From: Patescibacteria group bacterium
GTDB lineage: Bacteria > Patescibacteriota > Minisyncoccia > Minisyncoccales > RBG-13-36-15
Direction: 5' to 3'
DNA: 64,000 bases
Assembly: GCA_018609195.1 (NCBI GenBank)
Contig: JAHCSE010000001.1
Span: forward strand, 9,559-73,558
Part shown: positions 6,469 to 63,550 of the stretch, in pieces
Numbering within the stretch: the stretch's first letter is position 1
How the letters are laid out: each line of letters opens with the position of its first letter
The notes under the pieces: model-generated
Told to the model about the DNA's origin: nothing
Database searches by the model: none
Seen by the model: the letters and a program-made list of their open reading frames with translations, nothing else
Position numbers and translations under genes: made by a program

Positions 6469-6900
6469 TTATTTTATTACGCCTCCTGCTTTCTCAATTT
6501 TCTCTTGAGCTTGCTTTGAAACCTGACATTCTTCAATTGATAACTTTTTTGTCAGTTTCCCTTTTCCTAGAATTTTAACCTGGGGCAATCTTCCTTTTAT
6601 TTTACGAAATATTCTTTTCTCATGCAAGACTTTAGGAGTAATTGTATCTCCCTCTTTAAATTTTTTTTCTAAAATTTCAACATTAATTACAGTTGGTTTT
6701 AATTGAAAACTCTTAAATCTATATCCTCTCAATTTTGGATACCTTTTTATCAATTCTCGAATAATGGGCTTTAATCTTCTGCCTGCTCTCGATTTTTGAC
6801 CTTTCATTCCCTTACCAGAATAAGTTCCGCGTTTACCCCCTCGGCCAACGCGCTTTTTTCTCTTTCTTTTATAATTTGGTTTTAGCTGATGAAGTTGCAT
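6469..6900 (-). CDS. rplO: 50S ribosomal protein L15
   Basis: KRVGRGGKRGTYSGKGMKGQKSR motif; position in the spc operon. Confidence 0.93.
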   Translation of the reverse strand: MQLHQLKPNYKRKRKKRVGRGGKRGTYSGKGMKGQKSRAGRRLKPIIRELIKRYPKLRGYRFKSFQLKPTVINVEILEKKFKEGDTITPKVLHEKRIFRKIKGRLPQVKILGKGKLTKKLSIEECQVSKQAQEKIEKAGGVIK

Positions 6901-13696: not shown

Positions 13697-14113
13697 TTAT
13701 CTTGGCAACACTTCAATTTTTTGTCCCTCTTTTATTTTGACTATTGCTTTTTTATATCCTTTTCTCCAGCCAGTTATTCTCCCTAATCTTCTCCTTTTTT
13801 GAGGAATCTTTATAATTTTAACATCTACGACCTTCACTCCATAAAGACCTTCAATTACCCTTTTAATCTCAATCTTATTAGATCTGGAATAAACTTTAAA
13901 AACGTATTGATTTTTTTTAGTCAAATCGGTAGCTTTCTCTGTGATATGGAGGGATTTTAATATTCGATAGGCATGAAGGGGAATTCCCTTTCTCTCAATT
14001 CTTTTTTCTTCTGGAGGAATTTCAGGTTCTCTCACTTCCTTCACCTTCTTTTCTGGAATTTCTCTTTTCTCTTTTTTAATTTTTTTCTTTCGAAAACGGT
14101 CTAAAATTCCCAT
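13697..14113 (-). CDS. rplW: 50S ribosomal protein L23 (N-terminal K/E-rich extension)
   Basis: L23 core (YVFKV...IKRVIEGLYGVKVVDVKII) preceded by about 45 extra residues. Confidence 0.88.
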   Translation of the reverse strand: MGILDRFRKKKIKKEKREIPEKKVKEVREPEIPPEEKRIERKGIPLHAYRILKSLHITEKATDLTKKNQYVFKVYSRSNKIEIKRVIEGLYGVKVVDVKIIKIPQKRRRLGRITGWRKGYKKAIVKIKEGQKIEVLPR

Positions 14114-14132
14114 ATTGTTATTACAGAGCGAA

Positions 14133-14271
14133 GTCGCTCGCCCTCCTCCAGCCTTTGGCTGGCGGTCGCCTTCGGCGACCTTCGGGCTCGCTCTTTAGAA
14201 ACCCTCGGTTTCTAACACTCGCTTCGCTTGCTGTTTTCCTACACGGGAGAACCTATGGTTCTCCCGACCCC
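14133..14271 (-). repeat. module A element, copy A1 (4 hairpins)
   Basis: Sense strand: GGGGTCGGGAGAAC-CATAG-GTTCTCCCGTGTAGGAAAACAG..TTAGAAACC-GAG-GGTTTCTAA..GTCGCC-GAA-GGCGAC..CCAGCC-AAA-GGCTGG..AGGAGGGCGAGCGAC. Confidence 0.85.
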
Positions 14272-14923
14272 TCTCCATTTTGGGCAGCAAATTGGGTTTC
14301 AGGAATGTCTCTTTTATTATATTTATTGATTCTTTAGGTATTAATAAATATTTGAAAGAAAGTAAGTCCAAGGGATTTAAATCTTTAGTCTGGGTAGTTT
14401 CTACTTTAGGAATATTTTTTGAGGCTCTAATGACAGCTTCCTCTTTTGTAGGAAGAGCAATCAAACAAGATGCTTTTTTTATTGGTAGATTATTTAAAAT
14501 CTCAACAATCAATTTTGTCTTTGGTTTATCTAATTTTAAAGAATCCAAAAGAACTATTAAATTTTCTTTAGCTTTCGTTGATAATACCATAAACAAAGCT
14601 TTTCTTCTCATTTTTTTAGGAATTTTTTGCTTAAAAACTCTCGTTTTTCTTGGTCCAAAAGTGATTCCTCCTCCTCGCCAGATTGGAGAACGAATAGAGC
14701 CTGCCCTCGCTCTCCCTGTTCCTTTTTGCCGCCAGGGTTTTCTTCCTCCACCCCGAACCTCAGCTCTAATTTTGGTATGAGCGATAGGAATCCTTCTATT
14801 TGCCATCTGGCTCACCACTACCTGATGTACTAAATCAGGATTGATTTTCACATCAAAAATTTCTTTTGGTAATGAAGTTTTCCCAACTTCTTTTCCTTCT
14901 TGATTGTAAGTCTTAATAAACAT
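14195..14923 (-). CDS. rplD: 50S ribosomal protein L4 (C-terminus reads into repeat A1)
   Basis: L4 motifs (RGGGRKPWRQKGTGRAR). There is no stop before the repeat, so the last ~25 codons (..ERGRENHRFSRVGKQQAKRVLETEGF) are encoded by element A1. Confidence 0.9.
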   Translation of the reverse strand: MFIKTYNQEGKEVGKTSLPKEIFDVKINPDLVHQVVVSQMANRRIPIAHTKIRAEVRGGGRKPWRQKGTGRARAGSIRSPIWRGGGITFGPRKTRVFKQKIPKKMRRKALFMVLSTKAKENLIVLLDSLKLDKPKTKLIVEILNNLPIKKASCLIALPTKEEAVIRASKNIPKVETTQTKDLNPLDLLSFKYLLIPKESINIIKETFLKPNLLPKMERGRENHRFSRVGKQQAKRVLETEGF

Positions 14924-14931
14924 AAGTTAAT

Positions 14932-15080
14932 AGCGAGGGTAAGTTTTTCAAAGAGCATCTCGGAGGCATCGCTGGCATGGTGTCCGAGCGCAACGAGGAA
15001 CAGCGACGCCGAGAGTTGAACAAAATTTTCCTCGCTGGGGAAAATTATTGTGTCTCTTTGAGGAAGCTTTGCCCGAACGC
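14932..15080 (-). repeat. module B element, copy B1 (149 nt)
   Basis: About 91% identical (13 mismatches by eye) to 20288..20436. Fills the whole rplC-rplD spacer. Imperfect terminal inverted repeats GCGTTCGGGCAAAGC / GCTTACCCTCGCT. Confidence 0.85.
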
Positions 15081-15674
15081 TTATCCTCTAATTTCAAGCA
15101 GTGTTCCTTTTGCTCCTGGTACTGCTCCCTTCACTGCTAATAAATTATTTTCTGCATCAACTTTCACAACTTTTAAATTTTTCACTGTAACTCTTTCAAA
15201 GCCCATTCTGCCTGGCATTTTTTTTCCTTTAATCACTCTCTCTGGGAATGAAGAACCAACAGATCCCGGAGTTCTGGCTTCATGCTTTACTCCGTGAGAA
15301 GCTCCTCTTCCAGCAAATCCCCATCTTTTGACTACTCCGGCAAATCCTTTTCCTTTTGAGATACCAGAAATTTTCACTTTTTCTCCTTCCTCAAAAATTG
15401 AAACATCAATCTTTTGCCCTTCTTTAAAATCCTTTGCTTTATTTTTAAATTCTCTTAGAAATCTGAAAGGTTTTTTCCTCAGTGGTTTTTTAATCCGCTT
15501 TTTTTTCTCTATTTTTTTAAAACCGAGTTGAATAGCTTCGTACCTATCTTTTTCTTCGGTCTTCACTTGCGTGACAAAACAGGGGCCAGCCTCGATTACT
15601 GTTACTGACAAGACATTACCTTTTTCATCAAATATCTGGGACATTCCTAATTTTTGACCAAGAATAAACTTCAT
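15081..15674 (-). CDS. rplC: 50S ribosomal protein L3
   Basis: 197 aa; GKGFAGVVKRWGF and FKEGQKIDVS motifs. Confidence 0.93.
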   Translation of the reverse strand: MKFILGQKLGMSQIFDEKGNVLSVTVIEAGPCFVTQVKTEEKDRYEAIQLGFKKIEKKKRIKKPLRKKPFRFLREFKNKAKDFKEGQKIDVSIFEEGEKVKISGISKGKGFAGVVKRWGFAGRGASHGVKHEARTPGSVGSSFPERVIKGKKMPGRMGFERVTVKNLKVVKVDAENNLLAVKGAVPGAKGTLLEIRG

Positions 15675-15873
15675 ACTTTCCTACGAATTACTCTATCGCT
15701 AAGCGACTCCCCGGAGGGTTGATATTTGCGAATATACGAATAATAATTTTCCAACAAAATACCGGGCACTAACCCGGTACTTTATTTTGTAGGTTAGTTA
15801 ATTTTATAATTTTATAAATTTTTGAAATAATTATTTCTTATCATAATGAGATAAAAAATATATTCGTAGGTAT

Positions 15874-15900
15874 CTACATTTTTATTTCGATATCACCTCC
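15874..15900 (-). repeat. orphan duplicate of the last 8 codons + stop of rpsJ
   Basis: ctacatttttatttcgatatcacctcc versus 16010..16036 ctacatttttatttcgatgtcaactcc (25/27 identical). Lies on the far side of element A2. Confidence 0.85.
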
Positions 15901-15990
15901 GTCGCTCCGCTCCTTAGAAACCCGCGGTTTCTAACGCTCGCTTCACTCGCTGTTTTCCTACACGGGGAGACACCCAGTCTCCCCGACCCC
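15901..15990 (-). repeat. module A element, copy A2 (short form, hairpins 1-2)
   Basis: Sense: GGGGTCGGGGAGAC-TGGGT-GTCTCCCCGTGTAGGAAAACAG..TTAGAAACC-GCG-GGTTTCTAA-GGAGCGGAGCGAC. Confidence 0.85.
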
Positions 15991-16009
15991 TTCTGTGCGG
16001 AGTTGCCAT

Positions 16010-16354
16010 CTACATTTTTATTTCGATGTCAACTCCGGCTGGTAAATTTAAATTCATCAGAGAATCGATCACTTTTGAGCTAGGATTTAAAATATCAATG
16101 AGTCTTTTGTGAATTCTCGTTTCAAACTGTTCTCGGGCATCTTTGTGGATAAAAGAAGATCTATTGACGGTGTATTTGTGAATTTCAGTTGGTAAGGGGA
16201 CAGGTCCCGAGACCTCCGCCCCATATCTTAAAACAGTCTCCACAATCTGCCGAGCACTGCTATCTATAACTTTGTGGTCATAGGCTTTAAGCCTTATCCT
16301 AATCCTTGGCTTAACTTCTTCCTCAATTTCTTTTGATTTTTCCTTAACTTTCAT
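16010..16354 (-). CDS. rpsJ: 30S ribosomal protein S10
   Basis: 114 aa; [15 protein letters not shown] and [14 protein letters not shown] motifs. N-terminal K/E extension. Confidence 0.94.
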
Positions 16355-16376
16355 CTTAAAAAGGACAAAAAATTTT

Positions 16377-16447
16377 TAGGTTTTAGCGTTTAGGATCTAG
16401 GTCTATTAAGTGATATTAAATTTAAAAAAACTCGACGCTAAAACCTA
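16377..16447 (-). terminator. long hairpin between tuf and rpsJ (attenuator/terminator candidate)
   Basis: 12-bp stem TAGGTTTTAGCG/CGCTAAAACCTA followed on the minus strand by AAAATTTTTT. Confidence 0.4.
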
Positions 16448-16458
16448 GGCGCTAGACC

Positions 16459-17658
16459 CTATTTCACTATCTTCGTCACCACTCCTGCCCCCACTGTCTT
16501 TCCTCCCTCTCTGATGGCAAATCTTTGTTTTTCTTCCAAGGCGATAGGAAAAATTAATTTGATCTTCAAATTAACCGTATCCCCTGGCATAACCATTTCT
16601 GTACCTTCTAGTAAAGTTACCTCTCCTGTAACATCGGTGGTCCGGAAATAAAATTGGGGTTTATAACCAGAAAAGAAAGGAGTATGCCTTCCCCCTTCTT
16701 CTTTCGTTAGCACATAGACTTCTCCTTCAAAATCAGTATGGGGGGTAATTGAACCCGGTTTAGCTAGAACCTGACCTCTTTCCACTTCTTCTTTTTTTAA
16801 TCCCCTTACTAAGATTCCAACATTATCTCCTGCTCTTCCTTCGTCAAGTATTTTGTTAAACATTTCAATACTCACAACCACAGTTTTAATAGTAGGTCGC
16901 AAACCAACCAGTTCAACTTCTTCATTAGGGTGAACTATTCCCCGTTCGATTCTGCCCGTAGCCACCGTTCCTCTCCCTGCAATAGAGAAAACATCTTCAA
17001 TAGCCATCAAAACGGGTTTATCAATTTCTCTCACTGGTTCTGGAATAAAATCATCTAAGGCTTTAACCAAATCCAAAATTGGTTTAGCTTTTTCATCATC
17101 AGGGGAACTGGCCTCCAAGGCTTTCAAAGCCGATCCTCTAATTATTGGAGTTTTATCTCCTGGGAAACCATATTTTTTCAAAAGCTCCCTGAGTTCTGAC
17201 TCCACTAAGTTAATCATCTCTTGATCTTCTACGAGATCGCATTTATTCAAGAAAATAACAATTGAAGGCAGACCAACCTGTCTTGCTAATAAAATGTGTT
17301 CTCTAGTCTGGGGCATGGGGCCATCAGGAGCAGAAACTACTAGAATTGCTCCATCCATTTGAGCAGCTCCCGTAATCATGTTTTTGATGTAATCTGCATG
17401 GCCTGGACAATCAATATGAGCGTAGTGTCTTTTCTCGGTCTCGTATTCAACGTGAGTAATATTGATAGTCAATCCTCGAGCCCTTTCTTCGGGAGCTGAA
17501 TCAATTTCCTCCACTGTCTTTTTTGAGGTCCGCAATCCTTTTAACCCCAAGATTTTCAAAATAGCGGCAGTCAGCGTAGTCTTTCCATGATCGACATGGC
17601 CAATTGTCCCTACGTTGAGATGGGGTTTTACCCTTTCAAATTTTTCTTTCTCTGCCAT
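16459..17658 (-). CDS. tuf: elongation factor Tu
   Basis: [18 protein letters not shown] and NKCD GTPase motifs; 399 aa. Confidence 0.97.
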
Positions 17659-17748
17659 TTTGTAAGAGCTTCTAGGTTCTCGCTTCTAGGTTTTAGAAAT
17701 TTACTAATTATCTATAAGCTGAAAGCTAAAAGCTGATCTTATATTATT

Positions 17749-17776
17749 ATCTTAGTAAACCCTGAAAAATAGTCAA
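17749..17776 (-). promoter_or_regulatory. candidate sigma70-like promoter for tuf
   Basis: Minus strand TTGACT-N16-TAAGAT about 90 nt upstream of the tuf ATG. Confidence 0.4.
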
Positions 17777-17847
17777 GCTAGTTTACTAACTAATTTCCTT
17801 TGTATCAAAAATTCCTAACGGGGTCAATAGATTGGTTGTGGATTATC

Positions 17848-17925
17848 CTATTTCCTCTTTCCCTCAATGATCTCCTGAGTAATATTCTGAGGTACTTCTC
17901 CGTAATGGTCGAATTCCATCGTAAA
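17848..17925 (-). pseudogene. orphan second copy of the last 25 codons + stop of fusA
   Basis: Encodes [25 protein letters not shown] versus the fusA end [25 protein letters not shown] (22/25 aa identical, 54/78 nt identical). Confidence 0.85.
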
Positions 17926-18089
17926 GTCGCTCCGCTCCTCCAGTCTTCGGCTGGCGCTCCCCGCCAACATCTTCGAAGTTGTGGCGGGTCGCTTCGCTCC
18001 GCTCCCCAGACACCTCTCGGTTTCTGGCGGTCGTCGCTTCGCTCCTCCCTGTTTTCCTACACGGGAAAACACCCAGTTTTCCCGACCCC
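17926..18089 (-). repeat. module A element, copy A3
   Basis: Sense: GGGGTCGGGAAAAC-TGGGT-GTTTTCCCGTGTAGGAAAACAG..CCAGAAACC-GAGA-GGTGTCTGG..two further hairpins..GGAGCGGAGCGAC. Confidence 0.85.
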
Positions 18090-18120
18090 TTTCTGCTTCA
18101 CTATGGAGTTTTATCTAAAA

Positions 18121-20256
18121 TTATCTCCGTTTGCCTTCTATAATTTCTTGTGCGATGTTCCCTGGCACTTCACCGTAGTGATCAAACTCCATAGTAAACG
18201 TTCCTCGGCCTTCGGTCATCGATCGCAAAGCTGTGGCATAACCAAACATCTCAGCCAGAGGAACTTTAGCTGAAATTATTTTCAAATTTAACCTATCTTT
18301 TGTTTCTTCAATCTTCCCCCTCCTCGCTCCTAAATCCCCAATAGTATCTCCAAAAAATTCAGAAGGAATAATTACTTCTAATCTCATTATCGGTTCAAGT
18401 AAAATAGGTTTTGCTCTTTTGGCGGCCGTTTGCAAAGCAGCAGATGCAGCTATCTTGAAAGCAAATTCTGAGGAATCAACCTCATGATAGGAACCATCAT
18501 AAAGAGTCACTTCGATGTCAACCATAGGATAGCCTGCAGTTATCCCTTTTTCCATAGCTTCCTTCACTCCTTTTTTCACAGCGGGGATAAATTCTTTTGG
18601 GATGATTCCTCCTTTAATCTCGTCGATAAATTCAAATCCCTCTCCTCGTGTTTTGGGCCGAATTTTCAAGAAAACATGACCATATTGGCCTCTGCCGCCT
18701 GATTGTCTAATATATTTTCCTTCAGCTGAAGTTTCCTCTTTTATTGTTTCTTTATAGGCAACCTGAGGTCTTCCGGATGAAGCTTCCACCTTAAATTCTC
18801 TTCTCATTCGATCATTAATTATCTCTAAATGGAGCTCCCCCATTCCTGAGATAATAGTTTCTCCCGTTTCTAAATCACTTTTAATTTTAAAAGTGGGGTC
18901 TTCCTCAGCCAATCTTTTCAAAGCTAAACTCATTTTCTCTTGGTCGGCCTTCGTTTTCGGTTCAATTCGAATGGAAATGACAGGTTCTGGAAAGGTAATT
19001 TTTTCTAAGACAATGGGGTTATCAGGGTCACAAAGAGTATGACCAGTACTAGTTTTTTTTAATCCAACCGTAGCCCCAATATCTCCAGCGAAAAACTCTT
19101 GTACTTCCTCACGATCTGCCGCATGCATCCTTAAAATTCTCCCAATTCTCTCTTTCTCGCCCGTAGTTGCATTTAATACATAAGAACCTCTTTTTAAGCT
19201 ACCTGCATAAACTCGGAAATAATTTAAAGTTCCAACATAAGGATCAGCAGCAGATTTAAAAACCAAAGCGGAAAATGATTCTGAATCTAAAACTTTTCTT
19301 TCAATTTCCTGACCATTTCGAGGATCAACTCCTCTCACCGGAGGTAAATCCAAGGGGCTAGGCAAAAAATTCACAATTCCATCTAAGAGAGGCTGAATTC
19401 CTTTATTTCTCAAAGCTGATCCACAAAATACCGGGATGAGTTTGTAGGAAATTGTGGCTTTTCTCAATACTTCTCTCAATTCATTGATTGAAATTTCCTT
19501 TTTGGCTAAGTATTTCTCTAAAAGTTTCTCATCTTCAGCTGCAATTTTCTCCACTAATTTTTCTCGCCACTCTTTAGCGATCTTGCGCAAATTTTCAGGT
19601 ATCTCTTCTTCAACAACATTCTGGCCAAAGTCACCTTCAAATTTTAAGGCTCGCATTGTAAAGAGATCAATCACTCCTTCAAAATTTTCCTCGCTACCAA
19701 TTGGTAATTGAAGAACCACCGCCTGGGGAGATAATTTTTCCCAAATTGATTGCAAGCTCTTTTCAAAAGAAGCTCCTGTCCTATCCATTTTATTGATAAA
19801 GCAAATTCTGGGAACAGAAAATCTATCTGCTTGATGCCATACCGTCTCAGATTGAGGTTCTACTCCTGCTACTCCATCGAAAATCACTACCGCCCCATCC
19901 AAAACTCGCAAAGATCTTTGTACTTCCGCTGTAAAATCAATATGGCCAGGAGTATCAATAATGTTTATTCGATACTCATCTTTTTTGCTTTTTTCTTTGG
20001 ATTGACCGGGGGCGGTGTGTGGGTGATAGGTGGATGGAGTCCAAAAACAAGTAGTGGCTGCAGCTGTAATAGTAATTCCCCTTTCTTTTTCTTGAATCAT
20101 CCAATCCATTATTGCCTCCCCTTCATGAACTTCTCCAATTTTATGAGAAATTCCAGTATAGAAAAGCACCCGCTCAGTAACGGTTGTTTTCCCAGCATCG
20201 ATATGAGCAATAATACCAATATTGCGAGTTCGTTCTATTGGATACAAACGAGGCAT
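18121..20256 (-). CDS. fusA: elongation factor G
   Basis: [17 protein letters not shown] and NKMD motifs; 711 aa. Confidence 0.97.
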
Positions 20257-20287
20257 AATTTGTAGAAGCGGATTTACGCGGATCTAA

Positions 20288-20436
20288 AGCGAGGGTAAGC
20301 TTCTCAAAGAGCATCTCGGAGGCGTCGCTGGCAAGGTGTCCGAGTAAAGCGAGGAACAGCGACGCCGAGAGTTGAACAAAATTTTCCTCGCTGGGAAAAA
20401 TTATTGTGTCTCTTTGAGGGGGCTTTGCCCGAGCGA
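20288..20436 (-). repeat. module B element, copy B2 (149 nt)
   Basis: See B1. Contains a 10-bp stem GGCGTCGCTG/CAGCGACGCC and a long-range stem CTCAAAGAG/CTCTTTGAG. Confidence 0.85.
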
Positions 20437-20452
20437 ATCACCAAGCCAAATG

Positions 20453-20603
20453 GTCGCTCGCCCTCCTCCAGCGCAGAGCGCTGGCGGACGCCTTTGGCGT
20501 CCTTCGGGCTCACTCCCCAGACACCTCTCGGTTTCTGGCGCTCCTTCGCTTTCGCTCAGTCACTGTTTTCCTATACGGGGAAACACCCAGTTTCCCCGAC
20601 CCC
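20453..20603 (-). repeat. module A element, copy A4
   Basis: Sense: GGGGTCGGGGAAAC-TGGGT-GTTTCCCCGTATAGGAAAACAG..CCAGAAACC-GAGA-GGTGTCTGG..GACGCC-AAA-GGCGTC..CCAGCGC-TCT-GCGCTGG..AGGAGGGCGAGCGAC. Confidence 0.85.
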
Positions 20604-20609
20604 TTTCTG

Positions 20610-20635
20610 CCACTTTGCGTTACCACGCAAAGTGG
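20610..20635 (-). promoter_or_regulatory. 10-bp hairpin enclosing the rpsG stop codon
   Basis: CCACTTTGCG-TGGTAA-CGCAAAGTGG on the sense strand. The stop codon is in the loop, and the 3' arm abuts element A4. Confidence 0.7.
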
Positions 20636-21087
20636 GCAAAAGCTCTATTCGCCTCTGCCATCCTGTGAGTATTTTCTTTCTTTTTCACTGCCCAGCCAGT
20701 GTTATTTGCGGCTTCTATCATTTCTTCAGCCAATTTCTCTCTCATTGGTTTTCCTTTTCTTGATTTGGCAGCTTGGATAATCCAACGCATAGCTAAAGTT
20801 AGCCTTCTTTCCCCTTTCACTTCTCTCGGAACCTGATAGGTAGCACCTCCAATTCTTTTCGCTTTAACCTCAAGTAAGGGGGAGGCATTTTTCAGAGCCT
20901 GATCAAAAACTTCCAAGGGGTCTTTTTTCGTTTTTCCTTTAATTATATCAAAGGCCTGATAAACAATTCTTCTCGCCAGCATCTTTTTCCCTCGCCGCAT
21001 TACCTGATTGATAAACTTTGATACAATGATGTTATTGTAAACCGGGTCAGATGTAATTTCCCTTTTTTCTTTTTTCTTCCTCCTCAT
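20620..21087 (-). CDS. rpsG: 30S ribosomal protein S7
   Basis: 155 aa; [14 protein letters not shown] and RAFAHFAW C-terminus. Confidence 0.95.
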
Positions 21088-21090
21088 AAA

Positions 21091-21501
21091 TTATTTTTCT
21101 TTTTTTGTTCCATACCTTGATCTTCTTTGTTTTCTCTCCTCCACTCCTCCCGCATCTAAAACCCCCCTGACCACATAATATCTTACTCCTGGTAAATCCT
21201 TCACTCTTCCTCCCCGAAGTAAAACTATTGAGTGCTCTTGCAAATTATGGCCTTCCCCAGGTATGTAAGCTGTAACCTCCATACCATTGGTCAATCTTAC
21301 TCTCGCTACTTTTCTTAAGGCAGAATTTGGTTTCCTGGGAGTAACGGTAAATACTTTTAGACAAACTCCTCTTTTGAAAGGAGAAGGATAAAATTTTGGT
21401 CTATTTTTTAATACATTAAAGCTAAATTCCAAAGCTGGCCTCTTTCCAGGTTTTTTAATTCTCTTTCTCCCTTTTTTGATTAGTTGATGAATAGTTGGCA
21501 T
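21091..21501 (-). CDS. rpsL: 30S ribosomal protein S12
   Basis: [29 protein letters not shown] and [12 protein letters not shown] motifs. Confidence 0.96.
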
Positions 21502-21618
21502 AAACCCTACGAATTACGAATCAGTACGAATATACGAATAAATTTCCCCGACCCCTTCCGACGTGGGCTGCTATTTCTGTTTCGCAGACAATAGTAACAT
21601 TATCCTCTCAAAAATAAT

Positions 21619-21636
21619 TAAGCGGCTGACCGCTTA
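21619..21636 (-). terminator. terminator after the M50 protease gene
   Basis: TAAGCGG-TCAG-CCGCTTA followed by ATTATTTTT on the minus strand. Confidence 0.55.
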
Positions 21637-21671
21637 CATTTGAGATTATCAAATATTTTAATTTAAGTCAA

Positions 21672-22370
21672 TTAAATTCCAATAATAAACTTGAAAACTG
21701 CAAATATTAATGAAAATAAAGGTATTACGCCAGAGATTACCAGAAAAAGAAAAAATATCAAAATAAACATTCCATATGTTTCTAAATAAAATTTAATATG
21801 TTCTAAACGATAAGGTAAAATACTATAAAGAACTTTTGAACCATCTAAAGGTGGAATGGGAATTAAATTAAAGATAGCTAAAAGAACATTTAAAAAGACA
21901 ATGAAGCTAAAAATAAGAAAAACTGGAGCGAGGGGAGAAGCCTGAAGCAAGGAAGGTAAATCTTCTGTTCTCGCAGAAAAGAAAGCAAAAATTAAACTTG
22001 TTTTCAACTCTTGAGAAAGAGGCAAAATCCGGCTCAAAACCCCAAAAAGCATCGCTAACAAAAGGTTGGCAGCAGGTCCTGCTAGGGCAATTTTAGCTGG
22101 TCCCCATTTCTGATCTCTCAAGTTATAAGGATTGAAAGGAACAGGTTTTGCATAGCCAAAAAGGATTGGGCTTCGAAACAAAATTAAGAGTAAGGGTAAA
22201 AAAATGGAACCGAAAGGATCTAAATGCTTTATTGGATTTAAAGTAAGCCTGCCTGCGTATTTTGCCGTAGGATCACCCAAAAAATAAGCCGCTTGCCCAT
22301 GGGAAACTTCATGAATAACAACTGAAAAAAGTAAAACAATTAAAGAGAAGAGCAATAAGATAATTTCCAT
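21672..22370 (-). CDS. site-2 protease family (M50) zinc metalloprotease
   Basis: 232 aa, polytopic, with HEVSHG (HExxH) in the first TM helix. Confidence 0.8.
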   Translation of the reverse strand: MEIILLLFSLIVLLFSVVIHEVSHGQAAYFLGDPTAKYAGRLTLNPIKHLDPFGSIFLPLLLILFRSPILFGYAKPVPFNPYNLRDQKWGPAKIALAGPAANLLLAMLFGVLSRILPLSQELKTSLIFAFFSARTEDLPSLLQASPLAPVFLIFSFIVFLNVLLAIFNLIPIPPLDGSKVLYSILPYRLEHIKFYLETYGMFILIFFLFLVISGVIPLFSLIFAVFKFIIGI

Positions 22371-22697: not shown

Positions 22698-22770
22698 CGG
22701 GGCATAGTGTAATGGTTAACATTTGCGCATGGGGTGCGTAAGATTCTGGGTTCGAATCCCAGTGCCCCGA
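22698..22770 (+). tRNA. tRNA-Pro (anticodon GGG)
   Basis: Manual cloverleaf: acceptor CGGGGCA/TGCCCCG, D arm GTGT-AATGGTTA-ACAT, anticodon arm TGCGC-ATGGGGT-GCGTA, T arm CTGGG-TTCGAAT-CCCAG, discriminator A. CCA is not encoded. Confidence 0.88.
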
Positions 22771-25325: not shown

Positions 25326-25364
25326 AGTCCTACGAATTACGAATATTTACGAATATACGAACAG

Positions 25365-26219: not shown

Positions 26220-26298
26220 TGATTTTATTATAACGAACTATGTTCGATATATCACGCTGCGCGTGCTATAGGTTAGTTTATTGTGATTGAAAACAAAA

Positions 26299-26317
26299 AA
26301 CCGCCTTCTTGGCGATT
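26299..26317 (-). terminator. family terminator AATCGCCAAGAAGGCGGTT(T)n, copy a
   Basis: 7-bp stem AATCGCC/GGCGGTT, loop AAGAA, then a T-run. Downstream of 26339..26704. Confidence 0.6.
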
Positions 26318-26704: not shown

Positions 26705-26722
26705 TATTTCATTCTATCAAAA

Positions 26723-26741
26723 AACCGCCTTCTTGGCGATT
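26723..26741 (-). terminator. family terminator, copy b
   Basis: Identical 19-mer aaccgccttcttggcgatt. Downstream of 26823..27479. Confidence 0.6.
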
Positions 26742-27479: not shown

Positions 27480-27728
27480 TTTTCTCTTCCCTCCTTAACT
27501 GCAGATGTATTTTAAGTTAATTTAGATATTTGTAAAGAGTTAGGTTATATAGATTTTCACAAAAACAATCATTCAATAAAGAGTGGCGTTTTATTTTTTT
27601 AGGCTCCCAGACGGCGACTCAAACCCTTAAACCCTCACCTCCAACTCAAATTTAAGCCAATTATTGGACCATTGTCTATGGTCTCTCAGATTACGAACGG
27701 TGGTCTACTAATGGTTATTAAGGATAAA

Positions 27729-27747
27729 AACCGCCTTCTTGGCGATT
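27729..27747 (-). terminator. family terminator, copy c
   Basis: Identical 19-mer. Downstream of 27842..28087. Confidence 0.55.
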
Positions 27748-28917: not shown

Positions 28918-28937
28918 ATATATAATTCTAACAAAAA

Positions 28938-28956
28938 AACCGCCTTTTTGGCAATT
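28938..28956 (-). terminator. family terminator, copy d (variant)
   Basis: aaccgcctttttggcaatt. Downstream of the 29072..29224 gene. Confidence 0.5.
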
Positions 28957-35679: not shown

Positions 35680-35826
35680 AAAAATGTGTCCTCCTCCGTT
35701 AAAACTTTGGAGGACATGGATGGCATTCTGACTTTCACAGTTACGGCATAGTCCCGGATTTCCTGCCCGCATCGCTATACGAAGTATTGCAGGCGGGTCA
35801 CCGGAGTTCCCCATCCGTTTTCAAAG
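35680..35826 (-). promoter_or_regulatory. cobalamin riboswitch with terminator expression platform
   Basis: Sense strand: GGATGGGGAACTCCGGTGA...GGAAATCCGGGACTATGCCGTAACTGTGAAAGTCAGAATGCCATCC (B12-box-like AGTCAGAATGCC; P1 stem GGATGG/CCATCC). This is followed by the hairpin TGTCCTCC...GGAGGACA and T7. Confidence 0.78.
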
Positions 35827-35837
35827 TCCGTTAATAA

Positions 35838-57404: not shown

Positions 57405-57457
57405 GTGTATTTTTCCACAAGAGTTCTCATTGTTTTGTTTTGTATAGAGATATAAAA

Positions 57458-57476
57458 AACCGCCTTCTCGACGATT
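57458..57476 (-). terminator. family terminator, copy e (variant)
   Basis: aaccgccttctcgacgatt. Downstream of 57515..57700. Confidence 0.5.
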
Positions 57477-63346: not shown

Positions 63347-63390
63347 TCTCTTTTATTGTATTGGAATTTTAATTCCGATACAACACAGGA

Positions 63391-63512
63391 GGGGTCGGGA
63401 GGATTGGGTATCCTCCCGTATAGGAAAACAGGCTTTCAGGTGAGCGAAGCGAAGACTGAAAACGTTAGAAACCGTGGGTGTCTAAAGAACATGGTGCCGA
63501 GCGTTAGCGAGG
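63391..63512 (+). repeat. module A element, copy A6 (opposite orientation)
   Basis: Plus strand: GGGGTCGGGAGGAT-TGGGT-ATCCTCCCGTATAGGAAAACAG..GAGCGAAGCGAAG..TTAGAAACC-GTG-GGTGTCTAA.. Confidence 0.8.
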
Positions 63513-63550
63513 TCTATGTTCTTATACCGCATTTTATTCACAAACAAAAA

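Follow-up and report, generated by a model that had tools for sequence, protein, structure and literature searches.

Why does a GC-rich sequence of several hairpins stand again and again behind the stop codons of translation genes in one bacterial genome? The question is raised by a stretch of 64,000 nucleotides from a Patescibacteria group bacterium (assembly GCA_018609195.1, contig JAHCSE010000001.1, positions 9,559 to 73,558 of the forward strand; this whole stretch is called the window in the following), which contains five full copies of 90–165 nt and one 5' remnant of an element that we name module A. Of these full copies, four are found in a 6.5-kb part of the str/S10 operon, and the elements have 50–60% G+C compared to about 37% in the window. 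A preliminary description had offered three roles for them, an mRNA element of the REP/BIME type (repetitive extragenic palindrome/bacterial interspersed mosaic element), a protein-binding RNA or a non-autonomous mobile element served in trans. The last of these fits best, as the sites are empty in relatives, long target duplications flank the element, and decayed as well as antisense copies exist, while a REP-like role would be secondary. The most informative features are duplicated gene ends and an inverted segment derived from the target, both absent from that description. Module A is an insertion and not a fixed feature of the operon, and the best explanation, towards which we lean with modest confidence, is that it represents a previously undescribed family of non-autonomous mobile DNA specific to Patescibacteria (the candidate phyla radiation, CPR).

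Insertion sites and junctions

Read in the orientation of the element, the insertions have the arrangement U-T-(s)-X*-E-T-D, where E is the element, U and D are the sequences up- and downstream of the target and s is a spacer of 0–60 nt. T is a direct duplication of 15–112 nt that runs from the insertion point through the gene end, so that the upstream gene is preserved in full and the downstream copy remains as a fragment, R. X*, the reverse complement of the first 9–20 nt of T (in most cases it covers position 0 to 9–20), is located at the 5' edge of the element; it is predicted to form a hairpin over the stop codon together with the start of T, and it can also close the element via R. The insertion join is the 3' end of the element, 15–110 nt within a conserved gene or in a tRNA T-loop. 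The targets comprise the terminal codons of rpsJ, rpsG, fusA and rplD, the initial codons of fusA and the T-loops of tRNAs, and no common sequence motif was found among the insertion points. The copies in the window and their junctions are as follows, T(L) being the functional upstream copy of T:

14133..14284, minus strand: copy A1, long form, 96.9 bits, ends GAGCGAC
14114..14132, minus strand: 3' extension of A1, CTTCGCTCTGTAATAACAAT, abutting the rplW start codon
14195..14296, minus strand: C-terminal extension of rplD, 33 codons and stop, made from spacer and A1
15901..15997, minus strand: copy A2, short form, 95.0 bits, including the purine linker CACAGAAG
15998..16007, minus strand: X* of A2, GGCAACTCCG, inverted start of the duplicated rpsJ end
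16008..16037, minus strand: T(L) of A2, functional, last 8 rpsJ codons, TAG and 2 nt
15872..15900, minus strand: R of A2, displaced rpsJ end with a Val to Gly change, then ACCTACGAATAT
17926..18096, minus strand: copy A3, long form, 88.3 bits
18097..18115, minus strand: X* of A3, core AAACTCCATAGT, pairing 12/12 with fusA ACTATGGAGTTT
18121..18198, minus strand: T(L) of A3, functional, last 25 fusA codons and stop
17848..17925, minus strand: R of A3, second fusA C-terminal 25 codons and stop
20453..20609, minus strand: copy A4, long form, 87.0 bits
20610..20619, minus strand: X* of A4, CGCAAAGTGG, pairing 10/10 with CCACTTTGCG
20620..20635, minus strand: T(L) of A4, functional, CCACTTTGCGTGGTAA, last rpsG codons (HFAW) and TAA
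20438..20452, minus strand: R of A4, CATTTGGCTTGGTGA (HLAW*), displaced duplicate, then the D2 repeat as in relatives
21543..21570, minus strand: 5' remnant, CAGCCCACGTCGGAAGGGGTCGGGGAAA, 28 nt, cut off upstream of rpsL
63358..63521, plus strand: copy A6, 83.2 bits, antisense to both adjacent genes

A covariance model made from 87 family members finds the five full copies exactly where they had first been described, with 83–97 bits and E-values of 1e-18 to 1e-21, and with filters off it gives no further match above 15 bits in the 64 kb. All copies reach about 6 nt further in the 5' direction than reported before, through a purine linker CAGAAA. The position of four copies in sense orientation behind rplD, rpsJ, fusA and rpsG stands as described, except that A1 overlaps an extended rplD frame, and A6 proves to be antisense to its neighbours; the 5' tip noted earlier is the 28-nt remnant given above, and it comprises the extra 5' hairpin and the first core bases. 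As to the quoted stems, they are correct apart from H2 of A3 and A4 (CCAGAAACC/GGTGTCTGG), which has one internal A-G mismatch.

At rpsJ the two copies of T form a 30-nt direct repeat with 28 of 30 positions identical, and the last eight rpsJ codons with the stop codon would lie inside the predicted hairpin. The ACCTACGAATAT behind the displaced end is the native downstream sequence of rpsJ, since relatives carry (T)ACCTACGAATTACGAAT right after their rpsJ stop codon, and the joint of T and X* shows a microhomology of 3 nt, the terminal GAT of T being complementary to the ATC after X, the target segment copied in X*. At rpsG four related loci (L158, L099, L120 and L105) continue directly from the stop codon into TTCGCTCGG..., which belongs to D2. 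Because the native downstream sequence of rpsJ (ACCTACGAAT...) and of rpsG follows R and not the functional gene, these are true target duplications. A1 has no R copy; here the own stop codon of rplD was replaced by the element, so the open reading frame (ORF) 14195–14923 terminates by translation at a TAA within hairpin H2 of A1 and ribosomal protein L4 carries a 33-residue tail, compared to the C-terminus ...ETFLKNANS* in JACZRI01, the nearest reference genome.

The same signature is found in other members of the family. A flanking direct repeat is present in 25 of 79 copies compared to 0.5% in mismatched-locus controls, and complementarity between the 5' and 3' flanks is found in 23% versus 3.5%, a 6-fold enrichment. 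The polarity is consistent: in 26 of 31 cases it is the upstream copy into which an intact gene or tRNA reads, and a single, ambiguous case shows this for the downstream copy only. Young insertions show duplications of 52–112 nt which are 96–100% identical:

L007: duplication of 112 nt
L070: duplication of 96 nt
L004: duplication of 73 nt
L009: duplication of 66 nt, ending exactly at the stop codon
L041: duplication of 52 nt, the 3' part of a tRNA and its terminator

In the tRNA cases a complete tRNA, in many of them followed by a terminator-like hairpin, is located upstream, then X*, the element and a fragment from the T-loop to the acceptor end follow, and X* matches the T-arm of its own tRNA at 12–17 of 12–17 positions. 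Insertions near gene 5' ends are antisense and have the same architecture, as in fusA around codon 20 (L007, L076, L083).

Some loci show further details at these junctions. In tRNA copies (e.g. L024, L017, L026, L033, L082) the downstream T-loop is split into GGTTCnA, a mini-module of the GCGAAGCG type and GAATCC, so that the terminal motif of the element occurs twice with 6–8 target bases between. Displaced 3' fragments of the tRNA-Gln type in L017, L030 and L073 end with ...AGCCA, while the intact gene upstream has ...AGC followed by an A/T-rich trailer and does not encode CCA there; the fragments could come from a mature tRNA or from a donor gene encoding CCA. On the minus strand of L007 (about 6660–6710) a tandem 23-nt duplication, TTGGATATAATCTTGGCATATAT twice, includes the fusA start codon and is present in both copies of the 112-nt duplication; this may be what an earlier insertion left behind when it was excised. 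In the relative L124 (1–160) a 30-nt hairpin insert in the fusA tail has a T-X*-insert-T signature with the last 17 fusA codons present twice and AACTTCTTC as inverted copy, and it either represents another mini-element that takes the same pathway or is a family member with large deletions.

In order to compare filled and empty sites we used 80 related str/S10 loci, obtained from a metagenome scan with the S10 protein of the window (66–85% S10 identity), of which only three are matched by the covariance model. The median spacer in these relatives is 75 nt between rpsG and fusA (363 nt in the window), 172 nt between rpsJ and rplC (335 nt), 39 nt between rplC and rplD (157 nt) and 30 nt between rplD and rplW (168 nt), so the earlier statement that such spacers normally measure a few nucleotides does not hold for this clade. 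The A2 site is empty in about 69 of 70 related operons and the fusA 3' segment is single-copy in 47 related loci, as judged from a search with the C-terminal peptide. JACZRI01 (82% identity for EF-G, 89% for EF-Tu and 85% for S10) has filled fusA and rpsG sites and plain sequence at the rpsJ and rplD sites, showing that A2 and A1 are younger than A3 and A4. Decayed cores are still in place at the rpsG site of JACZRI01 and in L166. A lookup of the exact S10 protein for filled and empty population variants returned only the identical sequence.

Several sites have been used in more than one genome. The fusA 3' site (F-T-M-E-F) is occupied in the window, L002, L004 and L007, the fusA 5' site is used in three genomes, the rplD site at the same codon in the window and L061, and the rpsJ site in the window and L166 with closer relatives being empty there; T-loops of at least ten tRNA species are targeted. 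At rpsG, the R fragments of the window and JACZRI01 have a derived CATTTGGC in common with Leu replacing the conserved Phe, which argues for a single ancestral insertion, and the decayed insertion in JACZRI01 is probably orthologous to A4. The functional copies differ at two positions (CCACTTTGCG in the window, CCATTTTGCC in JACZRI01) and X* tracks both of them (CGCAAAGTGG and GGCAAAATGG, respectively), resulting in two compensatory double changes. The hairpin over the rpsG stop codon is therefore either under selection or kept perfect by templated quasi-palindrome correction.

The fusA copies point to exchange between genomes. T(L) and R differ in 19 synonymous and 3 non-synonymous codons in the window and in 19 and 2, respectively, in L002. 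L004 and L007 have mosaic copies, which agree completely in their 5' part, while their last 5–11 codons show synonymous differences only. Such a pattern is most simply read as the outcome of recombination, in which diverged lineages exchanged DNA through a single crossover within T. Homologous recombination would then carry the element together with the upstream gene end into a new genome, where R would serve as the downstream arm.

Family, fold and operon context

To see how far the family extends, the motif GTCGGG-N12-20-CCCGTNTAGGAAAAC was searched in a single scan of 185,579 species genomes, which gave 95 matching stretches, about 90 of them in Patescibacteria metagenome-assembled genomes (MAGs) with labels including Paceibacterota, Nealson-, Niyogi-, Staskawicz-, Colwell-, Lipton- and Jorgensenbacteria and many labelled Saccharibacteria. 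The five matches in other phyla do not have the rest of the element and are due to chance. In 609 kb of element-bearing loci the covariance model detects 103 copies. Their consensus is (C)ARRRAGGGGTCGGG-H1-CCCGTRTAGGAAAACAG-(variable hairpin)-CG-H2(YYAGAAACC GNGG GGTTTCTRR)-GGAGCG-(0–3 hairpins)-GAGCGAC, which means that a purine leader CARRRAGG is followed by GGGGTCGGG, stem H1, the linker CCCGTRTAGGAAAACAG, a variable hairpin and H2 (YYAGAAACC...GGTTTCTRR), and that the 3' terminus is a run of (G/A)GCGA repeats, the last being GAGCGAC; the junction can be written as GAGCGAGCGAC-target. The ends are sharp to 1–2 nt at unrelated targets and the single-stranded linkers show no variation across candidate phyla.

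Aligning the five window copies gives long invariant blocks. The 17-mer CCCGTRTAGGAAAACAG occurs five times exactly in the window compared to 0.3 occurrences expected by chance, and AGGGGTCGGG is present in all five full copies and the 5' remnant. A1 is built from an extra 5' hairpin CCCAAAATGGAGAGGGG, the core (H1, linker and H2) and a 3' domain consisting of a GCCC/GGGC helix around H3 and H4. Two hairpins of A6, GTATTGGAATT/AATTCCGATAC on the 5' side and GAACATGG.../...CTATGTTC on the 3' side, are also found in the copies of CAYGBM01.

That module A is a covarying multi-hairpin family, as had been proposed, is borne out by 87 copies with five covarying positions in H1 and two in H2. H1 and H2 cells are paired to 98.6% compared to 88.4% in shuffles, 186 double-change cells stand against 53, none of 500 shuffles reaches the observed values, and the signal collapses in slid controls. 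Rfam holds no such family: none of the copies matches at the gathering thresholds of Rfam 15, nor does the region 13900–21700 with a permissive E of up to 10, and no description of the family was found in the literature accessible to our search. In viral contigs, scanned with two motifs, no family copy was found, and the two matches of the H2 motif obtained there are unrelated palindromes of high-GC phages.

The earlier conclusion from this compensation, namely that the structure is maintained at each locus and does not decay as in a MITE (miniature inverted-repeat transposable element), does not follow from the covariation. Decayed copies do exist (see above), and the stems are almost purely Watson-Crick (97%, with a G-U share of 2.9%). 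Stems of this kind fit DNA palindromes or hairpins that are created or corrected by templated copying, and they do not allow selection at the RNA level to be distinguished from selection at the DNA level. In favour of that conclusion are the compensatory changes of X and X* between the orthologous rpsG insertions. Folding z-scores range from -4.0 to -5.6 for RNA and reach -7.9 for DNA, the DNA fold being as significant as the RNA fold. The linkers contain GCGAAGC motifs, and GCGAAGC forms an unusually stable DNA mini-hairpin. The tandem (G/A)GCGA or GAGC repeats at the 3' end look like a protein-binding iteron. We conclude that strand-specific structure matters and that it could act as RNA or as single-stranded DNA.

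Two variants of the element should be mentioned. Circularly permuted copies with a break at the H1 loop (L041 2141–2223; L135/L138 8820–8915) begin with the CCCGTGTTGGAAAA linker and H2, end with GGGGTCGGGG and have H1 as closing helix, hinting at a circular, concatemeric or tandem intermediate. A subfamily of about 18 loci (e.g. L027, L032, L062, L078, L088, L093, L095, L065 and the window at 14114–14132) carries a 3' extension CTRACTTnGTAnTACCAC(T), called class 2, that stops exactly at a start codon or a tRNA 5' end or shortly before 16S, and also an additional 5' hairpin CCCAnnTCGGARGGGG. The extension of A1 fits the conserved class 2 sequence CTRACTTnGTAnTACCAC(T)ATG when compared with these loci. 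It may be an outward-facing expression signal or a transduced ancestral target.

Every gene between 10 and 22 kb of the window is on the minus strand, and the genes around the four sense copies are:

rpsL, 21501–21091, minus strand
rpsG, 21087–20620, minus strand, then copy A4 and a D2 repeat
fusA, 20256–18121, minus strand, then copy A3
tuf, 17658–16459, minus strand
rpsJ, 16354–16010, minus strand, then copy A2
rplC, 15674–15081, minus strand, then the second D2 copy
rplD, 14923–14195, minus strand, then copy A1
rplW, 14113–13697, minus strand

The sense copies are probably co-transcribed with the str/S10 operons. On read-through they would place a stable multi-helix domain after rpsG, fusA, rpsJ and rplD, each preceded, according to the predicted folds, by a hairpin of 10–15 bp enclosing the stop codon. 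A REP-like protective or processing role on the mRNA is plausible, which in our view would be secondary, a side effect. The spacers retain a pseudo C-terminus of EF-G and small end fragments of rpsJ and rpsG.

Other repeats are also present in these operons. The D2 family mentioned above has two copies on the minus strand (14932–15079 and 20288–20435; 92% identical) in the rplC-rplD and rpsG-fusA spacers. In JACZRI01 both of these spacers contain D2 too, its internal stems covarying, and L158, L099, L120 and L105 have D2-related sequence behind the rpsG stop codon. The sense strand of D2 contains GATGCTCTTTGA(G/A)AA, which we take to resemble the boxA antitermination motif. Short repeats of the TACGAAT type, located at 21508–21540 upstream of rpsL, at 15684–15745 upstream of rplC and at 25337–25356 upstream of another gene, follow the rpsJ stop codon in many relatives and may be a promoter or regulatory array. 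Elsewhere in the window five near-identical copies of AAAAAACCGCCTTCTTGGCGATT (26286–26317, 26710–26741, 27716–27747, 28925–28956 and 57445–57476) combine a small GC hairpin with a T-run on the gene strand, so that one intrinsic-terminator-like unit serves at several gene ends. Rfam matches only two sequences of the window, a tRNA gene (22698–22770, plus strand) and an adenosylcobalamin (AdoCbl-II) riboswitch (35713–35827, minus strand), which at 39.1 bits exceeds the gathering score. Two pairs of direct repeats among small redox and membrane genes, 53902–54074/55380–55552 (92%) and 52920–53046/57556–57682 (73%), look like local duplications of gene segments.

Route of insertion and competing explanations

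How could such junctions arise? The reading that we consider best, and which we regard as slightly favoured, is that module A is copied in by target-primed snap-back and is subsequently spread between genomes by recombination, the mechanism being deduced from the junctions. A nick at the boundary of U and T would serve as primer for copying the element from an RNA or single-stranded DNA template, after which the hairpin cluster would bring the growing end back to the primer region, where a snap-back copy would become X*. Synthesis would then restart on the target 15–112 nt downstream and generate T, and only those events in which T reaches the gene end would survive. The enzyme would act in trans and be coded outside the window, candidates being a reverse transcriptase or an HUH/Rep-type nickase, which would recognise the GAGC/AGCGA repeats. 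Homologous recombination with the gene body and R as arms would account for the spread. The earlier finding that no mobility gene is nearby extends beyond the window, where Pfam searches of ten unannotated ORFs gave no mobility domain, to the 8-kb flanks of 90 element loci, in which no transposase, reverse transcriptase or integrase occurs among the clustered ORFs; the clusters represent EF-G, ribosomal proteins and housekeeping genes. One window ORF is an Mrr-like nuclease with an ATP-cone whose position is unrelated to the elements.

Several points weigh against this reading. No enzyme can be assigned and each mechanistic step is deduced from junction sequences. About two thirds of the copies have no detectable duplication; they could have decayed intergenic targets or result from a second insertion mode. 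The length of X* is near constant whatever the length of T, which is not what random snap-back predicts and would better fit a protein ruler or a guide. We keep both as alternatives, and in the ruler variant a protein might, for example, measure a fixed distance from the GAGC repeats to its nick, much like the resolution step of rolling-hairpin replication. The R fragments of old tRNA and fusA copies are conserved better than a neutral relic should be, possibly owing to recombination with functional alleles, and the extra GCGAAGCG mini-module in the duplicated T-loop of tRNA copies is not predicted by a simple model. In addition, the sense bias, the highly expressed neighbours and the X/X* compensation would also fit a selected RNA function.

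Going further, one may speculate that the movement itself follows a mechanism undescribed in bacteria, in which the element, as structured RNA or single-stranded DNA, is copied in at a nick within a conserved gene, builds its closing stem from the target or uses this stem as a guide to that conserved site in further genomes, and carries along the gene-end duplicate as an arm for horizontal homing. We put this forward tentatively and regard it as possible, with the chances rather against it; if true, it would be a programmable insertion without transposase aimed at tRNA T-loops, EF-G and ribosomal proteins.

The strongest competing explanation is that module A is primarily a host-selected cis-acting RNA in polycistronic mRNAs, which could stabilise 3' ends like a REP, mark a processing site or bind a protein, and for which mobility would be incidental or ancient. 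Between co-directional genes 53 copies are sense and 13 antisense, all 26 tRNA-adjacent copies are sense, and the neighbours are mainly and in excess EF-G, ribosomal proteins and tRNAs, with 16S once. The invariance of the linkers across candidate phyla, the very stable predicted folds and the rpsG stop-codon pairing, which the two double changes separating JACZRI01 from the window left intact, can be read in the same way. On the other hand the same spacers exist without the element in 70–80 related operons and the rpsJ and rplD sites of JACZRI01 are empty, decayed cores remain in place at the rpsG site of JACZRI01 and in L166, and the antisense copies (L007) have the same junction architecture. 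G-U pairs are rare and both strands fold almost equally, with the sense strand preferred in 54 cases and the antisense strand in 33 and a mean difference of 1.2 kcal/mol. Moreover, A1 took over the stop codon of rplD, and tRNA copies are located downstream of the tRNA's own terminator-like hairpin. Altogether we consider a primarily cis-acting RNA unlikely.

Alternatively X* could be a guide, with a transcript or single strand of the element that carries X* pairing with the conserved target sequence X and steering the 3' end of the element to it, so that homing would proceed by base pairing and new guides would be rare. The sharing of positions by distant genomes (fusA 3' in four, fusA 5' in three, rpsJ in two and T-loops of at least ten tRNA species), targets that belong to the best conserved sequences in a cell, the near-constant 9–20 nt of X* adjoining a conserved scaffold and the match of X* in L004 to an ACG allele of other genomes and not to the local ACA would all be expected from a guide. 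Yet each X* fits the idiosyncratic bases of its own target, in more than 12 different tRNAs as well as in unrelated genes, which means that guides for new sites must be made from the target anyway. Furthermore there is no associated effector protein in the window or the 90 flanks, and guide direction alone would leave the duplication of 15–112 nt unexplained. We therefore regard homing by guide as rather improbable, and target-primed snap-back copying remains the reading that we prefer.

Much less credible are miniature integrative elements moved by a tyrosine or serine recombinase, similar to cis-mobilizable elements (CIMEs), with the duplicated gene ends as att sites. Such an origin would agree with a crossover in the tRNA T-loop, a duplication to the tRNA 3' end and duplicated 3' ends of protein genes that restore the reading frame, but a recombinase would duplicate only a short overlap and not generate long identical duplications of its own at each of more than 15 unrelated targets, att sites have no counterpart of X*, no integrase is found in the window or the 90 flanks, and the inserts measure merely 90–165 nt. 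That the repeats are artefacts of assembly or binning through chimeric joins at GC-rich repeats has a negligible probability: short-read assemblies indeed break within the elements, the contig of the independent Logan assembly L178 beginning and ending within H1 of A3 and A2 as expected of real repeats, but this contig is 100% identical over 15961–18078 including the junctions, the same architecture recurs in about 90 MAGs from many studies, and reading frames and duplicated codons are coherent.

Some further candidates were tried and rejected. An intron-like excision joining the gene body to R disagrees with the tRNA copies behind a terminator-like hairpin, with the like architecture of antisense copies and with A1, which lacks R, and for translational bypass the distance is too great. 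An integron attC site and a CRISPR or TIGR array were rejected as well, ARAGORN called no tRNA gene in the element copies tested (21 loci), which speaks against a tRNA-like structure, and the copy number is too low for a DNA uptake sequence.

Patescibacteria have tiny, streamlined genomes with few recognised mobile elements, a picture that is altered by a widespread structured element which enters the most conserved and highest-expressed genes and leaves them functional. The element also accounts for the assembly breaks that recur in the ribosomal operons used for phylogeny and binning, and the duplicated gene ends easily give rise to annotation errors such as extended L4 proteins, pseudo C-termini of EF-G and tRNA 3' fragments. 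The signature points to polymerase-driven or guide-assisted insertion, maybe by a housekeeping or widely shared enzyme; should this pathway be confirmed, DNA insertion would have a new route, whose junctions are precise and sequence-addressable.

Comparison with known systems

Module A resembles REP and BIME sequences as GC-rich palindromes in AT-richer genomes that stand after stop codons in operons, with a mosaic, modular build, co-transcription, an mRNA-stabilising potential and no transposase inside the element. It differs from them by its multi-helix fold of 90–165 nt with long invariant single-stranded linkers, as REPs are single palindromes of 20–40 nt, and the GTAG that is expected at the foot of a REP stem belongs here to the linker CCCGTGTAGGAAAACAG and is separated from the following stem by 8 nt. 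The best-sampled MAGs contain 3–5 matches, counted by the exact motif alone, compared to hundreds of REPs. The copies are extragenic after stop codons, though their insertion points lie in genes. Module A shows a 15–112 nt duplication (25 of 79 copies) and an inverted target copy, and we know of no target duplication reported for REPs. A gene for a REP-associated tyrosine transposase (RAYT, Y1 HUH) is found neither in the window nor in the 90 flanks of 8 kb.

MITEs, Correia/NEMIS, BOX, RUP and ERIC repeats and the Rickettsia palindromic elements are likewise small, non-autonomous and structured, intergenic and sometimes intragenic in reduced genomes; the modules recall BOX A-B-C, and Rickettsia palindromic elements extend reading frames too. 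The ends of module A, CARRRAGGGGTC... and ...GAGCGAC, are not complementary and thus no terminal inverted repeats, its duplication is variable (15–112 nt) where that of MITEs is fixed (2–10 nt), and its 5' flank carries the templated inverted target copy. A parent insertion sequence with matching ends was found neither among the fetched loci with their 8-kb flanks nor in the viral contigs. The palindrome-associated elements derived from IS200/IS605 insertion sequences (PATEs) have a fixed tetra- or pentanucleotide at the insertion point, where module A has none and shows long duplications instead.

Islands of tyrosine integrases and CIMEs also insert inside a gene (in the T-loop for tRNAs), duplicate its 3' end and restore the gene upstream. 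Module A is distinct from them by its size of about 100 nt, dozens of unrelated targets, more than 15 of them with duplications of their own in place of a few attachment sites, X* and the lack of an integrase in or near it. With SINEs (short interspersed elements) and non-LTR (long terminal repeat) retroelements it shares target duplications of variable length, extra templated bases at the 5' junction and a presumed dependence on a polymerase acting in trans. Its 3' end is GAGCGAC and not an A-rich tail, the sole truncated copy (21543–21570) retains the 5' and not the 3' end, and no partner reverse transcriptase occurs in the window or the flanks. A diversity-generating retroelement (DGR) similarly places a hairpin beside its target gene, on the 3' side, and has the gene end once more downstream, but a pair of variable and template repeats was rejected as the 24 differences between the fusA copies span all base types, are mostly synonymous and are not adenine-specific.

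Outside bacteria, the inverted terminal repeats (ITRs) of parvoviruses are GC-rich multi-arm hairpins of about 125–145 nt, the Rep-binding element of adeno-associated virus consists of GAGC repeats, and in rolling-hairpin replication nicking at a set distance from the hairpin leads to an inverted copy of the adjoining sequence. Here the likeness is one of form only; module A is bacterial and chromosomal, and a Rep gene was not found. Fungal mitochondria have GC clusters, double-hairpin elements and byp elements, which are GC-rich hairpins that also invade AT-rich reduced genomes including coding regions, and the Allomyces atp6 case includes a duplicated foreign gene 3' end; they differ from module A in sequence, size and host, and translational bypassing is not indicated for module A. 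In summary, module A lacks defining features of each of REP/BIME sequences, modular repeats, tRNA islands and target-primed retroelements, and its insertion signature, a long gene-end duplication combined with a templated inverted copy of the target, is as far as we know from the literature searched unmatched by any described bacterial element.

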